This document shows, one piece after another, positions 6,001-12,000 of a stretch of 24,084 nucleotides of DNA (its first letter is position 1; each line of letters opens with the position of its first letter). Position numbers: made by a program. The stretch is from Escherichia phage TL-2011a. The stretch lies in sequence record JQ011316. One strand, given 5' to 3'.

Positions 6001-9000
6001 CATCCGTCACGTAATTTACGGGTGATTCGCTCAAGTAAAGATTCGGAAGGGCAGCCAGCAACAGGCCACCCTGCAATGGCATATTGCATGGTGTGCTCCT
6101 TATTTATACATAACGAAAAACGCCTCGAGTGAAGCGTTATNNGTATGCATATAAAAAGGCCCTCACACTGGAGGGCAAAGAAGATTTCCAATAATCAGAA
6201 CAAGTCGGCTCCTGTTTAGTTACGAGCGACATTGCTCCGTGTATTCACTCGTTGGAATGAATACACAGTGCTTATTCGTACTAATAAAATACCCAATTTT
6301 CTGTTTCTTGGTTGTGTCCAAAGTTATATTCAATATCTGGTATTGATGTATCAATATTCTTCATCCCATCAACAAGAGTTGATACAACAGCTAAATCTTG
6401 TTTGATTCTCATTAAATGGTATTTCTTCCGGCGCAATAAACTTTCAATGGCAAGTTTCTTCGTTGGGAATGCAAAAGATCTTTCTGCATTTTTTGCTACT
6501 TTCTTAATTGCATATCTATTTCTCCTTTGTTTCCATTCCTGTAACCACTGATTTGGTGCTGGTTTAAAATTAACAATCCAATGCGCAGGAACCAACCATG
6601 CATAATGCTCTGTCTGATGAAAAGCTATATATTGAAGTGCGAATATTTTTATCCCATCTTCTTCAACTGTCGCCTGGAATCTCCAGAAAACAGGCATTCC
6701 ATCATGTTCAGTTTCTGATTCAGGAAAAGGTACGCTCCATGATTTTGTCATATCTCACTTCAAATAAGTGGTTTGCTGCCTAATTTCATTTTCTGGCGAC
6801 CAACACAAGTCACCTCGCCGTCAGTTGTTTTGATTTCCGGTAGCCTGCCGCGTAAATGGCTACGTTTGGAAGACATACACCAGTTTCTGGTTGCTTATGT
6901 CCAAACTCATTCGCGTACACAATGGCCGCTCGCTCCAGATTGCGTCTGTATTCTTTCTGTTGCCAGATCACGTCCTGTGCCATGAACTTAATTGGCTTAG
7001 CGTCTTCTATGCGCTCAGGCGTTTCGTGAGTACCTTTAGCCTGAATCTGCGCTCTGCTTAGAGTAGGGCGGTGTAATACTTCTGAACTTATTGCTTCTTC
7101 GCGGGCCAGTACGCCGTTAGCTAATGCCTTTGCCTTTAAACGCTCACGACGACGAGAACGTGAATTGCCTTTGAACTGAGTTCTGCGTGTCATATAGACC
7201 TCCTGATGAACTTTGGTGGTGTGGTAGGTGGGAGACCCATTTCGACCTGTTTCGGCCTACTTCAATTCGGCAATAGTCCCGCAGGCCTCGCCGCTTTACG
7301 TGCGACATATTCCCGTCCATGAACCCTTCACCACACCCCAAAGTTCACTTTGGTTATTGCGCTTTGTCAGCGCCGTAGATTCATATTCGAATCGTTGTAT
7401 ATTCACCGCCCTGGTGAGTAATGCGTCCTGCTGACGATGATAATAATGAACCAATAGTTCGACATTATCAAGAACTATTGGTACGAATTTTGGTGATTTA
7501 TTAACTCTACGAAGTATGATTCTGATATATAAGGAAATTTATTTTTGAAAATGTGGCTGATGAAGGTTATGCGGCAGGGATCATAACTGCATGGTTTAGC
7601 GAGTTACATCAATAAATACAATTGGTTATGTTTTTTAGGTGGGCGAACGTGAGGCAAAGAAAACCCGGCGCTGAGGCCGGGCTAGATTTTAAAGTATTTA
7701 TCTTTTAGAGATGTAGATGTAAAACTTTTCGCCTTTGAAAATTTTTTGTCATCAGAAGGGCTTATGAACTCATCTTTTTTGTAGGGAACCGCTAATGCTG
7801 CATCACGTCTGCGAGGCAGCTTGCTTACTTCCTCGCGCTTTTTCATGATCAGTTATCCTTTAATAACCTATACAGTTTTGTAGGGGTACATCCTGAGGAT
7901 ATTGTTAAGTTCGTAGCACGCCTTTTCCGCCCATCATCGTATAAACGAAAACCAGTAGTAGACGAATTTTCTGCGTCAAAAACTATAGACAGTATAGCGT
8001 CCCCAGACTTTTTTTGCCATTCGCATGTGCCGTTAGTTGGTTTCGTCATCTGTAGACGCCAGTCAAGAACGCCATCACTTATAGCTGAGAGATCGTTTAG
8101 TACATCTAGTACGGATTGATATCTTTCATTTGGATCTACATGAATGCATTTGTTCACTATTGTTATTAATTTTTTATGTATATGGGGAGGATACTCTTTT
8201 AATGGATAGCAGCCATTAATTATCGACTCTCTGAGTTGTTCAATCGTGCTAAATGCAGATCTTTCTCTTTCAAAATTATCATGTCCAACACACATTCTAT
8301 ATATGGTTAATCCTGCCTGATATATGTCATATGTGAAATTATAATCATTTGTTGATAAAGAAAAATATTCCGGTGGCACATGAAAATGATATCCAAACTC
8401 AGGCGCAGCTCTCGATTCCTCATTGACTAACTGAGATAATCCAAAGTCAGATAGCATGGCCTCATTTCTGTTTGATATCATAATGTTATTAGGTTTTATA
8501 TCAAAATGCATAAGACCTTTTGAGTGTATATGATAAAGTCCACTTAAAAATTGAATGGAATACCGTATTATCTCCCTGCTTGTAAGATTATTTTTTTTCA
8601 TTAATTGGTTTAGCGAACCATTATGATAAAATGGCATGGCTATATAGATATTGCTCTCACATTGAGCAGCATACTGAACTTGCACAATATTTGGATGTGC
8701 ATGTTTATAGAGAAGCCTTGCTTCATTAAAGTAGTCGTCGTGGTTAGTGTTTTCTTTTTTTTCTATTTCTTTAATCACCAAGTCATGAGCTAGGTGTCTG
8801 TCATGAGCCAGATATACTTTTGAAAAACAACCCTGTTCTTCTAGATCACTAATCCATTCGAATTCTACATCAGCTCTTTTGTATGGAGTTAGCATCCCCT
8901 TACCTCCGCAGATAGTGCAGCCAAAACAGCTTCATTTGTTTCAGTTGTAAAACCAGAATTATCGATTCCATTTATATTGCGGTGTGACTTCAATATTTCT

Positions 9001-12000
9001 TTATACTCGATCTCTGTTAGGTTCAATGATGATTTCATGCCAGATTTTCTAATAGTGTAATATTTTCTTACATCACTGCTTGAAAATGCTTCTTGAATAA
9101 CAGCTTCTATATAAAGGCGGTCAATGCTAAGATTATCAGAGTTTGATTCAGTAACGCGTATGGCAGCTAATTCAACATTATATAAATTAAGAATGTCGAG
9201 GATGTTATTTCTCACATACTTTAATTTTTCTGGTGTGTCTAAGGTCGAAGGTATTTTAATAACATCAACACATTTGAGTGCAGACTCATTAGTGCAATAT
9301 ACAACAAAAGATGTAACTTTGGGCGCCGCTCTAACACCTAGTATTCTCATTTTTTATATCCTATTTTAGAATCAGGCCGCATCTCTGCGACCATCCATCA
9401 TCCAAACGTCTCTTCACTCACCCGAAGAAGCAGCAATCCGGGTCAGCACGCACAAGCTCAAGCGCATCAGTCAGCGAAAGTTCAGTACTGTACTGATGCC
9501 ATTTCATATCCTTCCGCATCCAATAGATTTTCCATCTATCCAGAGAACGTATGTACTTGATTCTTGCTGATGGCAGGATGTTTGTTTCACCTGGATTGCC
9601 CTGCCACACGGGGCGCTGTTCGCCGATATCTATCGTTTGGTCATTGATGCTATAAACAATATCCAGTTCATTGCGGATATGTTCAGGCGGCCTTATGCTT
9701 TCAATGAATTGGTGAACTTCTTTTTTTACTGCTTGATATTCAAGGTCATTGAACGCCATCTATCCTCCTTACCCAAACGTCTCTTCAGGCCACTGGTTAC
9801 CAGCTATGTGACGATGAAGTCACGAACTTTTCAGCCACTCCCTTGCCTCGATGTCATCCAGATGGCGAGATTGCTTCAGAATACCAGCTACATACTCCAC
9901 CTTTGCTACTTGATGATAAGGCAACGTTATAGGCCTGTGATCCTGGTTAATGCTTGTAAATTGGTATTCTCCATCTCTGTCATAGCCAAGAACCTTAATC
10001 ATGTTGTGTCCTTCAACGGTTCTGACAAACACCTCATCACCCGGGAATACTTTGGTGTTAGGCTCAATGAGTACATATTCTCCTGATTTTATTCTGGGCC
10101 ACATGCTGTCTCCTTTCACACGAAGACCAAAGGCATCTGGATCATCGCTATAAATTTTGAGCCACCCATCGCGCTCTTCGGTCATCTCGATGGCACCATC
10201 AACACCAAGAATTGCCTCACCAACCACGCGCACTAACCCTTTTTTTAATTTGCCAACAAATGAAAGAGTATCTTCATCATTCGCTCCATTTAACGAAGTG
10301 CCGTGCTGAAGCCAAACAACATCAACGTTTAGAAATTTCGCAAGCGCATTCATTTTTTCCTGACGCGGTAAAGACTCAGCATTAAACCATTTGCTAACGC
10401 CTTTGGACGAAAGAGAAAGGGCACGGGCTATAGCCATTCCCCTACCATGTTCATCAAGACCAGCTTCTTTACAGGCTTGCGCTAGCCGCTGGGCGAATTC
10501 TTTGCGCACTTTTTCATTCTGAACCATGAGTACGATACTAAAGCACTTGCAAAAACTTTCAGTTCAACCATAATACGTACTGAAAGTACGAAAAAGGATA
10601 TTCCTATGCAAAATCTTGATGAGCCGATTAAAGGTGTCGGCATCCCTGAAGTTGCGAAGGCTTGTGGAGTTAGCGAAAGGGCTGTCTATAAGTGGCTCAA
10701 AAACGGCTTCCTCCCTAAGACTGAGTTTTTTGGGAAAACTAAATACGCATCAAAAATCGAAGAGATTTCTGGTGGCAAATATCAAGCAAGCGAAATGCTT
10801 GAAATAAGCAAAAAGAACCTTCTGGCTGCATAAGTAACACCGCTATTTTCACAATGGACATTCGTCCTACGTCGCTGACAAAGCGAGTCCCAATATATCT
10901 GACCAACTAAGGCCATATGCGTTTCCACGCATACCTTTCAACTAGCTATTCACTATTGGAAATCTTAAGAAATGGAACAAACAAGTTACAGCAAACTATC
11001 ACAGCGAGAAATTGATCGCGCTGAAACTGATTTACTCATCAACCTGTCAACGCTTACCCAGCGCGGTCTGGCAAAGATGATTGGCTGTCATGAATCGAAG
11101 ATAAGCAGAACGGACTGGAGATTTATTGCTTCGGTCTTGTGTGCTTTCGGAATGGCATCAGACATCAGTCCGATTAGCAGGGCTTTTAAGTATGCGCTTG
11201 ATGGACTCACCAATAAAAAACGCCCGGCGGCAACCGAGCGTTCTGAACAAATACAAATGGAATTTTAACAACATCCAGCGAGGTAATTATATGCGAAACA
11301 AAGGCTTTAATCCACCTGATACACACAAAGAAGCTAAGCGTTTGCGCTTCCTTCGTTCCATTGATGAAAGAACTCAAATCTCTTTTGTGAAAGTTGCCAG
11401 AACTGAGCTTCTGAAGGCTGAGGCGAGGGCGTTGCTCCCGTCTCTACCAAAAGAGGAGGGATATACGTTCATTCCAAACGCATTTCTGGAAAAGCTGCTC
11501 AAAGAAGACATATCCGTAAGTCAGTTTAACGATGTTCTTAAGGTCTTTCGTCAAGGCAGGTAGTTATGAGCAATACAGCAAAAATCTACGATTTCAGCGC
11601 CGCACACGAGCGCAGGAGCAACAGGATGGAGAACCAGAAAACTGGTTACATTCCGTTGTACCGGAGCATTCTGAAACAGTCATGGGCGAAAGATGTTTAT
11701 CTTCGCACCCTGTGGGAAAACCTTCTCCTGAATGCCACCAGAAAGCCATACAAAGCGAATTTCAAAGGTCATGAATGGCATCTGCAACCCGGTCAACTGG
11801 TTGTGACAGCAGCTGATTTAGGTCTTCAGTTATGCGACAGGCATGGCAAGCCAGCAAGCCGCGATCAGGTTGAGCGGATGCTTCAGGTTTTTGTGAAAGA
11901 GGGGATGATCACCATTGATGGAGAGAAGCAAAAAGGTCGTGTGATTACCATCACAAATTACCATGAATATGCTCAAAAAATGGACGATTCACCCGCACAT

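Follow-up and report, generated by a model that had tools for sequence, protein, structure and literature searches.

The DNA that we analyzed is a 24,084-nucleotide stretch of Escherichia phage TL-2011a (sequence record JQ011316; the window hereafter), which by sequence is the early region of a 933W-like Stx phage. On the minus strand, a gene encoding a 127 amino acid N protein with the arginine-rich motif FKGNSRSRRRERLKAKALANG (6810..7193) follows nutL (7359..7425). On the plus strand, cro (10606..10833; an open reading frame annotated as cro in 933W) precedes nutR (10841-10886). A consensus scan placed pR at 10547..10574 on the plus strand (TTGCAA, 16-nt spacer, CATAAT), the site annotated as pR in 933W and 24B, and a candidate pL at 7443..7471 on the minus strand (TTGATA, 17-nt spacer, CATTAT). 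The motif CAGCAGGACGC is common to the pL region of the window and to P22, whose record marks the +1 position; by homology to the P22/lambda start motif AUCAGCAGGACGC, the pL transcript would begin near 7435. Both nut sites are already known: their annotation goes back to the 933W genome record, and they have been the subject of work in H-19B.

Each nut site carries a boxB hairpin. A preliminary description of this DNA had placed these hairpins at 7359-7373 (- strand) and 10872-10886 (+ strand), each with a GACAA loop, just upstream of N and just downstream of cro. Direct reading matched the coordinates, strands and loops exactly: the reverse complement of 7359-7373 is GCGCTGACAAAGCGC, and the plus strand at 10872-10886 is TCGCTGACAAAGCGA. 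The nutL boxB, GCGCUGACAAAGCGC (7373..7359), lies inside the nutL annotated in 933W and ends 165 nt before the N start codon, while the nutR boxB, UCGCUGACAAAGCGA (10872..10886), forms the 3' end of the nutR annotated in 933W and starts 38 nt past the cro stop codon, so the described placement also stands. Both consist of a 5-bp Watson-Crick stem capped by a GACAA pentaloop and have the same sense in their respective early transcripts. They have the 13-mer CGCTGACAAAGCG in common and differ solely in a compensated outer pair (G-C vs U-A). The window contains exactly two copies of this 13-mer, one in each boxB, and a scan of both strands of the whole window for perfect hairpins with a 5-bp stem and a GACAA loop retrieved these two only. 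The 15-mers were predicted to fold at -7.1 kcal/mol (z -3.2) for the nutL boxB and -5.6 kcal/mol (z -3.8) for the nutR boxB; folds of the whole nut RNAs gave a modest gain over shuffled sequences (z about -1.6).

The preliminary description had proposed a comparison with published nut sites of P22 and Stx phages. The 67-nt nutL, which begins at CGCAUUACU as in the 933W record, is identical at 67/67 positions to AF125520 9614..9680 (933W) and to the nutL feature of HM208303 (24B). The nutR element is base-for-base the nutR feature of the 933W and 24B GenBank records, and the nutL boxB matches that of P22. In a comparison with relatives, no canonical boxA was found in nutL at the position where Sakai-type nutL carries GCUCUUUAA. 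In nutR, a boxA variant, CGCUAUUUU (10841..10849, + strand), opens the element as annotated in 933W and lies 22 nt before boxB. For H-19B, boxA is reported to be dispensable. The boxBs of HK97 are those of the window, likewise 165 nt from N and 38 nt from cro, but in HK97 and many relatives the nutR boxA is CGCUCUUUU rather than the variant found in the window and 933W. Folding further predicted a spacer hairpin in each site, followed by UACG and then boxB: GAUUC-GAAUAU-GAAUC in nutL (7378..7393, - strand; in both MFE and centroid folds) and GGAC-AUUC-GUCC in nutR (10856..10867, + strand). The nutL spacer dyad is kept in relatives with other sequence (GUCGA-CUC-UCGAC in Sakai, GUCGA-ACAC-UCGAC in POCJ13), and the nutR spacer hairpin is kept in every relative examined. 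Pairs 1-3 of the boxB stem show compensatory changes among family members; this covariation was read by hand, as MAFFT misplaced the gap between boxBs of 14 and 15 nt. A search of Rfam at gathering thresholds matched no nut or boxB family (the matches were Lambda_thermo, isrK, C4, three tRNAs and STnc100), which reflects the absence of a suitable model and is not counter-evidence.

Several putative terminators lie downstream of the nut sites. In the nutR-cII interval, the hairpin AUGCGU-UUCC-ACGCAU (10917..10932, + strand) falls in the presumed tR1 region, where it may have a role; relatives carry a covarying AUGCGC-CAGU-GCGCAU at this position, which the g341c annotation lists as a putative tR. 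Termination at tR1 of H-19B requires Rho, and that terminator overlaps nutR (PMC3526286). In the leftward operon, a terminator scan identified an intrinsic-terminator-like hairpin, GCCCUC-CAGUGU-GAGGGC followed by CUUUUUAU (6159..6176, - strand), and a second such hairpin just upstream of cIII in the transcript sense (6119..6138, - strand). Directly downstream of the latter is an Rfam match to the cIII thermoregulator (6044-6102). Outside the nut module the window differs from 933W in that it is without exo-bet-gam and ea10/ssb, encodes a P22-type helicase with an intein and has a cIII stop codon.

The N protein encoded in the window has 100% identity with N of 933W and 98% with N of HK97. Its residue numbering is that of H-19B N (R3, S11, 12-RSRRRER-18); in H-19B, mutations in the motif abolish antitermination at nutR/tR1, and N and NusA together shield the spacer and boxB from RNase (PMC3526286). 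The protein encoded in the window is assigned to Pfam PF25694 (N_peptide), scoring 57.5 bits where the cut-off is 27.9, and to PHROG 271; a search with it found no match to PF11438 (lambda N36). P22 gp24 is the best match to PF25694 here, at 152 bits. The preliminary description credited N with a P22-like arginine-rich motif; the likeness of the motif is only moderate, with 7/19 residues identical to P22 and 6/19 to lambda. P22 gp24 (100 aa) and the window N (127 aa) both contain GN-x-[KR]-[ST]-RR-x-ER and diverge outside the motif and the C-terminus; a BLASTP comparison aligned the C-terminal 30 aa only (67% identity). Among the residues with which the P22 peptide contacts RNA, Asn1, Arg5, Arg6, Glu8 and Arg9 are identical in the window N. 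Four others are, as aligned, conservative replacements (Lys3->Arg, His7->Arg, Arg11->Lys and Ile15->Leu), and the remainder differ. A PDB sequence search with N retrieved nothing relevant, probably because the N peptides there fall short of the 20-residue minimum or offer too little length for a score.

On the RNA side, the nutL boxB is identical at 15/15 positions to the P22 nutL boxB and is the 15-mer RNA of PDB 1A4T, a complex with the P22 N peptide (PMC11480772), in which the cytosine of GACAA is looped out and touches the peptide (PMC12550061). The hairpins are thus of the P22 type, as had been described, with a 5-bp stem, a U-A closing pair and a GACAA loop, and the nutR boxB departs from P22 nutL in its outer pair only. 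The nut sites could nevertheless be real and served by an N with a specificity of its own, such that a shared GACAA boxB would not imply functional interchangeability with P22 gp24. In favor of this possibility are the near-equal motif identities to P22 and lambda and the confinement of the BLASTP alignment to the C-terminus. In addition, the P22 nutR boxB, CCGCCGACAACGCGG, has a different stem and a C-C closing position, and P22 has a canonical boxA, CGCUCUUUA, with a short unstructured spacer, whereas the window phage has spacer hairpins and a weak or absent boxA in nutL. Against it stand the complete identity of the nutL boxB to an RNA solved with the P22 peptide, the identical or conservatively replaced RNA-contacting residues, and an N score above the cut-off of the family in which P22 gp24 scores best. 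A search of the accessible literature turned up no assay of cross-recognition with P22 gp24. On balance we regard an N with a specificity of its own as somewhat unlikely.

The lambda N-boxB complex (PDB 1QFQ) represents the same overall system and placement, with a 5-bp stem, a U-A closing pair and a GNRA-like pentaloop. However, the lambda loops are GAAGA and GAAAA rather than GACAA, and lambda N matches PF11438 and has a Trp in its motif (Trp18), neither of which holds for the window N. The GACAA loop, the Trp-less motif and the lack of a PF11438 match exclude assignment of the window to the lambda-type N36/boxB class. The preliminary description had contrasted a P22/Stx-phage-like N with lambda-like cII, ninE and ninG, and had read the region as a mosaic. 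The mosaic character is supported, but the contrast is not. The cII protein has 44% overall identity to lambda cII and is lambda-identical only in a C-terminal stretch overlapping the oop terminator. Because ninE (98% identity to P22, 93% to lambda) and ninG (90% to P22, 93% to lambda) are about equally close to both phages, they offer no contrast to a P22-like N.

Nor can "P22/Stx-phage-like" be treated as one specificity, since Stx phages contain at least two N/boxB classes: a 933W type with GACAA and a VT2-Sakai type with GAAA and a different motif. Phages of the VT2-Sakai, POCJ13 and g341c type have the same nut layout as the window (boxA, spacer hairpin, UACG, boxB), nearly identical nutR flanks and the same C-terminal N domain. 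Their boxB, however, has a GAAA or GCAA tetraloop, equivalent to the window nutR with its loop C removed, and their N motif, FKGTAASRRRARRANLQ or FNGSAAGRRRERRAALQ, is without the Lys/Arg, Lys and Leu counterparts of the P22 contact residues.

We surveyed relatives for the relationship between loop type and N motif. A first scan of viral contigs retrieved only N proteins at least 98% identical to the window N, so loci were re-sampled from IMG/VR by the nutR spacer pattern, which selects neither on N nor on loop type; a scan of genome contigs yielded 11 loci only, several of which are fragmentary or probably stem from contamination. In the re-sampled loci, a GACAA nutR was accompanied by a 933W-type N motif in 21/21 cases and a GAAA-tetraloop nutR by a Sakai/g341c-type motif in 35/35 (Fisher p = 7e-16 for the association, partly inflated by shared ancestry as the loci are not independent). 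Among unique GACAA-loop nutR contexts, the commonest flank with CGCTATTTT was represented 49 times and the commonest with CGCTCTTTT 38 times. Both loop types are found with the same Cro types and with flanks that are identical over the 40 nt downstream; the loop thus tracks N while the immunity module reassorts. Non-conservation in relatives had been named as grounds for rejecting the hairpins; both were present in 76 unique N-to-nutR intervals of very different spacing. What is conserved includes the loop sequence and not the stem alone, and it switches in step with the N motif.

The main addition of this survey is that the nutR loop (GACAA vs GAAA) tracks the N motif class with no exceptions despite reassortment of the immunity module, which suggests discrete, testable N specificity classes among Stx phages. 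We tentatively propose that a single boxB-loop nucleotide may separate two N classes in Stx and related lambdoid phages, a GA(C)AA pentaloop and a GAAA tetraloop in otherwise identical nutR contexts, each locked to its own arginine-rich motif. This is a suggestion to which we give rather less than even weight. We found no prior description of two loop-defined N classes in the accessible literature, older H-19B and 933W papers excepted.

The hairpins might instead have another role in RNA, as a processing site, a transcript stabilizer, or a pause site or terminator, and not bind N. Short GC-rich hairpins are indeed common in phage leader regions, but neither boxB is followed by a U-run, the loop sequence is conserved and switches together with the N motif, and boxB is protected by N and NusA in H-19B footprinting (PMC3526286), which makes such a role highly improbable. 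A chance match, or a DNA-level palindrome for a DNA-binding protein, is dismissed as extremely improbable: although tolerant motif searches (≤1 or 2 mismatches) gave at least two matches in 11-12% of shuffles, 300 first-order Markov simulations gave a mean of 0.08 exact hairpins per window and at least two in 0.7% of runs, the asymmetric loop is always GACAA in the transcript sense, which a DNA palindrome would not need, and both copies occupy syntenic nut positions and are kept in relatives across the varied spacings noted above.

The two hairpins thus very probably represent boxB of nutL and boxB of nutR in a lambdoid phage of the 933W/HK97/H-19B type, working as N antitermination sites. This reading draws on the observed sequences, positions and predicted folds, on their identity with nut features of existing records and on the strict coupling of loop to N motif. 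Against it count the missing canonical boxA of nutL, the variant boxA of nutR, the modest folding gain of the whole nut RNAs and the shared ancestry that partly inflates the loop-motif association. The H-19B and P22 literature supplies the binding by N, the placement of NusA on the spacer, antitermination itself and the geometry of the loop, all of which would extend to the window phage by analogy. In this model, polymerase from pL or pR would transcribe a nut site composed of a boxA-like element, spacer hairpin and boxB, and the boxB RNA would form a 5-bp stem capped by the GACAA pentaloop. By analogy to the solved P22 complex, the loop would fold like a GNRA tetraloop, its C looped out. The N gene lies just downstream of nutL, and the arginine-rich N-terminal segment of its product (residues about 7-27, core RSRRRER) would then bind boxB, and with NusA on the spacer the RNA-tethered N would modify the elongating polymerase. 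Readthrough of tR1 in the rightward direction and of the hairpins at 6176..6119 in the leftward direction would allow delayed-early expression.

N-nut antitermination controls delayed-early transcription in Stx phages and thereby contributes to the cascade toward Q and toxin expression, and the correct location of nut sites matters for annotation. Should the two N classes prove unable to cross-react, prophages that share an EHEC strain could not antiterminate for one another. In that case the conserved nut spacers would serve as recombination joints, at which immunity modules could be swapped without breaking the match between N and nut.

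Direct reading of the window bore out, in sequence and coordinates, the boxB hairpins claimed at 7359-7373 (- strand) and 10872-10886 (+ strand): nutR boxB is TCGCTGACAAAGCGA, and nutL boxB, read from the - strand at 7359-7373, is GCGCTGACAAAGCGC. Both have a stem of 5 Watson-Crick bp and a GACAA loop. They share a 13-nt core, which occurs exactly twice in the window, and differ only in a compensated outer pair (G-C in nutL, U-A in nutR). These were the only perfect 5-bp-stem hairpins with a GACAA loop in a dedicated scan of both strands of the window; first-order Markov simulations (300 runs) gave on average 0.08 such hairpins, with at least two in 0.7% of runs. 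Predicted folds of the 15-mers match the drawn hairpins (nutL, -7.1 kcal/mol, z -3.2; nutR, -5.6 kcal/mol, z -3.8).

The nut features of this region are already known, because the window sequences match sites annotated in the 933W (AF125520) and 24B (HM208303) records. The comparison with Stx-phage nut sites that the preliminary description had proposed gave exact string matches of window 7359-7425 to 'nutL; putative N-utilization leftward' and of 10841-10886 to 'nutR', and its coordinates 7359 and 10886 are the outer ends of these features. Nut sites have also been studied experimentally within the same N family. Across window 6000-11400, identity to many Stx phages, 933W, 24B and Min27 among them, is 99.5%. 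This 933W-type early region carries N (6810-7193), a terminator (7683..7662), an L0079 homologue, three small ORFs, the stk kinase and cI (9820-10527) on the - strand, and cro (10606-10833) and cII (10972-11268) on the + strand.

On the + strand, nutR begins with a boxA variant, CGCUAUUUU (10841-10849), followed by CACAAU, a spacer hairpin GGAC-AUUC-GUCC (10856-10867), UACG and boxB (10872-10886). The nutL leader on the - strand is taken to start near 7435 at CAGCAGGACGC, the motif with which pL transcripts of P22 and lambda begin; a hairpin (UCACC-AGGGC-GGUGA) and AUAUACAAC then lead to a spacer hairpin GAUUC-GAAUAU-GAAUC (7393..7378), UACG and boxB (7373..7359). For each site, spacer hairpin and boxB appear together in the minimum-free-energy fold and in the centroid fold. 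The promoter candidates are pL, TTGATA-17-CATTAT (7471..7443, - strand), and pR, TTGCAA-16-CATAAT (10547-10574, + strand), which coincides with the pR annotated in 933W. Downstream targets would be a hairpin at 10917-10932 (+ strand) in the nutR-cII interval, presumed to be the tR1 region, and two intrinsic-terminator-like hairpins at 6176..6159 and 6138..6119 (- strand), which correspond to the terminators previously named at 6113-6176. The ea10/ssb gene (roughly 400 bp), which in 933W lies between two leftward terminator hairpins, is absent from window 6119-6176. The NN at 6141-6142 represents ambiguous bases only (933W reads TG there), and further single N bases at 3054-3237 suggest a lower-quality assembly.

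In the P22 record, nutL reads ...CGCTCTTTAACTTCGATGAT-GCGCTGACAAAGCGC and nutR reads ...CGCTCTTTACCAATCTGAA-CCGCCGACAACGCGG; the P22 nutL boxB is identical (15/15) to that of the window, in agreement with the P22-type loop originally proposed. The same 15-mer is the RNA of the solved P22 N-peptide complex, PDB 1A4T (PMC11480772). In this complex the loop cytosine is extruded and the remaining four nucleotides of GACAA adopt a GNRA-like fold; the extruded C touches peptide residues His7 and Arg11 (PMC12550061) and also an Ile (PMC11480772). When P22 peptide NAKTRRHERRRKLAIERDT is aligned with window N NSRSRRRERLKAKALANGV, Asn1, Arg5, Arg6, Glu8, Arg9 and Ala14 are identical, whereas Lys3, His7, Arg11 and Ile15 are replaced by Arg, Arg, Lys and Leu, respectively. 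Beyond the motif, the only BLASTP alignment between the two N proteins covers their C-terminal 30 aa (67% identity). Both belong to Pfam PF25694 (window N 57.5 bits, cut-off 27.9; P22 gp24 152 bits), whereas lambda N matches PF11438 (N36) and scores below threshold for PF25694. 'P22-like' is fair for the RNA element and protein family and moderate for motif identity, because the boxB match and PF25694 membership stand beside an arginine-rich motif with 7/19 identity to P22 and 6/19 to lambda; the P22-like motif of the preliminary description holds for the family, with moderate identity of residues.

Classical N-nut processive antitermination at nutL and nutR is the best-supported reading. The N of phage H-19B equals window N in residue numbers and motif (R3, S11, 12-RSRRRER-18), and its mutations R15C, R15P and R18P abolished antitermination at H-19B nutR/tR1 (PMC3526286). 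The H-19B nutR RNA forms two hairpins; N with NusA and NusG shields the spacer and boxB from RNase H and RNase T1 while boxA stays unprotected, and the Rho-dependent tR1 overlaps nutR (PMC3526286). We found a C/A polymorphism in nutR boxA: the most frequent flank with CGCTATTTT was seen in 49 contexts, the most frequent with CGCTCTTTT in 38. Neely and Friedman, in Mol Microbiol in 2000, reportedly found that H-19B N requires NusA, not NusB or S10, that BOXA is dispensable and that the role of the spacer dyad is structural. This would be consistent with the degenerate boxA of nutL and with the nutR boxA polymorphism. By analogy, the N binding and antitermination known from the literature would hold for TL-2011a.

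Sequence, placement and co-variation of the nut sites were observed directly. Loss of the hairpins in relatives, named earlier as evidence that would count against them, was not seen: HK97 carries both boxBs with unchanged spacings (165 nt and 38 nt), and distant N relatives keep the layout of boxA, spacer hairpin, UACG and boxB, with boxB and N motif changing together. N motif FKGTSRARRRERLKAKALANG occurs with nutR UCGCUGACAAGGCGA in SPN9CC, FNGSAAGRRRERRAALQN with nutL CGGCUGAAAAGCCG and nutR UCGCUGAAAAGCGA in g341c and SI8, and FKGTAASRRRARRANLQS with boxBs UGGCUGAAAAGCCA and UCGCUGAAAAGCGA in VT2-Sakai; POCJ13 has boxBs UGGCUGCAAAGCCA and UCGCUGAAAAGCGA. The VT2-Sakai nutR boxB is the window nutR boxB without the loop C, a true GNRA tetraloop, whereas the window loop is GNRA-like with an extra C. 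Across the family, stem pairs 1-3 show two-sided changes (pair 1 G-C, U-A or C-G; pair 2 C-G or G-C; pair 3 G-C, C-G or U-A), pair 4 (C-G) is invariant, and the closing pair is U-A except in SPN9CC and P22 nutR and SPN9CC nutL. The nutL spacer differs in sequence with its dyad kept (GAUUC/GAAUC vs GUCGA/UCGAC). In SPN9CC (locus L006), the nutL boxB upstream of N is GCUCCGUCAACGAGC, with loop GUCAA instead of GACAA and a C-C closing position in common with P22 nutR boxB (locus L003, 31948-31962); its nutR retains the GACAA loop with a U-G closing pair.

A tblastn search of the window with lambda and P22 proteins shows that the claimed mosaic assembly is real. Identities to lambda and P22, respectively, are 98% and 66% for cIII, 93% and 98% for ninE, and 93% and 90% for ninG; cII is 44% identical to lambda, and P22 cII had no match in the window. 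The lambda-like label does not suit cII, ninE and ninG resemble P22 about as closely as lambda, and the helicase is P22 gp12-like; the contrast of a P22-like N with a lambda-like remainder is inaccurate. A mosaic joint lies inside the chimeric cII, because its first ~75 aa are unlike lambda and its last ~18 aa are lambda-identical, together with the opposite-strand oop terminator (11244..11217), which overlaps the only lambda-identical part, the C-terminal stretch NKKRPAATERSEQIQMEF. cIII carries a Lambda_thermo element (Rfam). Its codon 47 (5949-5951, - strand), TCA (Ser) in lambda and 933W, is a TAA stop that cuts the protein from 54 to 46 aa; base 5950 (T in the window, G in 933W) also alters the third residue of kil, an overlapping ORF that reads MDKT here. 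The DnaB-type replicative helicase (12510-14903) is 84-93% identical to P22 gp12 either side of an insertion (~13137-14129, ~331 aa), whose LAGLIDADG and homing-endonuclease Pfam domains point to an intein. The left arm (window 1-5900) is not 933W-like; it gave no tblastn matches to exo, bet or gam and has a P22-like abc2 (61%) at 4068-4361. No single phage record covers more than 72% of the window. Rfam matches include isrK and the C4 antisense RNA with its a1/b1 target (17720-17915), three tRNA genes (21664-21910) and STnc100 (22017-22222), the latter stretch resembling the usual region upstream of stx.

We scanned IMG/VR with the nutR spacer GGACATTCGTCCTACG, a sampling independent of N and loop type. 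Where N lay within the locus, GACAA nutR occurred with the 933W-type N motif (21/21 unique contexts) and GAAA nutR with Sakai/g341c-type motifs (35/35), with 0 discordant contexts (Fisher p = 7e-16, no true probability because the loci are related). The full set of loci gave 116 unique N-to-nutR intervals, with listed distances between about 1.4 and 3.6 kb, and nutL loop, nutR loop and N motif were concordant save for the SPN9CC-type nutL variant and the GCAA nutL of POCJ13. The N specificity first described as P22/Stx-phage-like does go with a P22-type boxB, but 'Stx-phage-like' spans at least two N/boxB classes. Because Cro types (lambda-like MEQRITLKDYA..., 933W-type MQNLDEPIKG..., and MSNELLRWRK...) are shared by the loci ahead of both loop types and identical 40-nt sequences occur 3' of boxB in the GACAA and GAAA classes, the immunity module that separates nutR from N reassorts freely, with the nutR loop still tracking N.

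The nutR spacer hairpin with UACG and the 40 nt 3' of boxB (window 10850-10926) are nearly invariant in loci L102-L180, spanning phages that differ in cro genes, N classes and loop types, and may be homologous joints for exchanging immunity modules. One 394-bp contig, attributed to Xanthomonas pisi, has an N 99% identical to that of the window, and N homologues also occur on contigs of a Segatella copri MAG; these loci (L011, L012, L016) probably reflect contamination or misbinning in public assemblies. The tracking of N by the loop is the pattern expected from selection for a cognate N-boxB pair. It is possible, though we suggest this only tentatively, that the single loop C divides co-resident Stx prophages into N specificity classes that do not cross-react.
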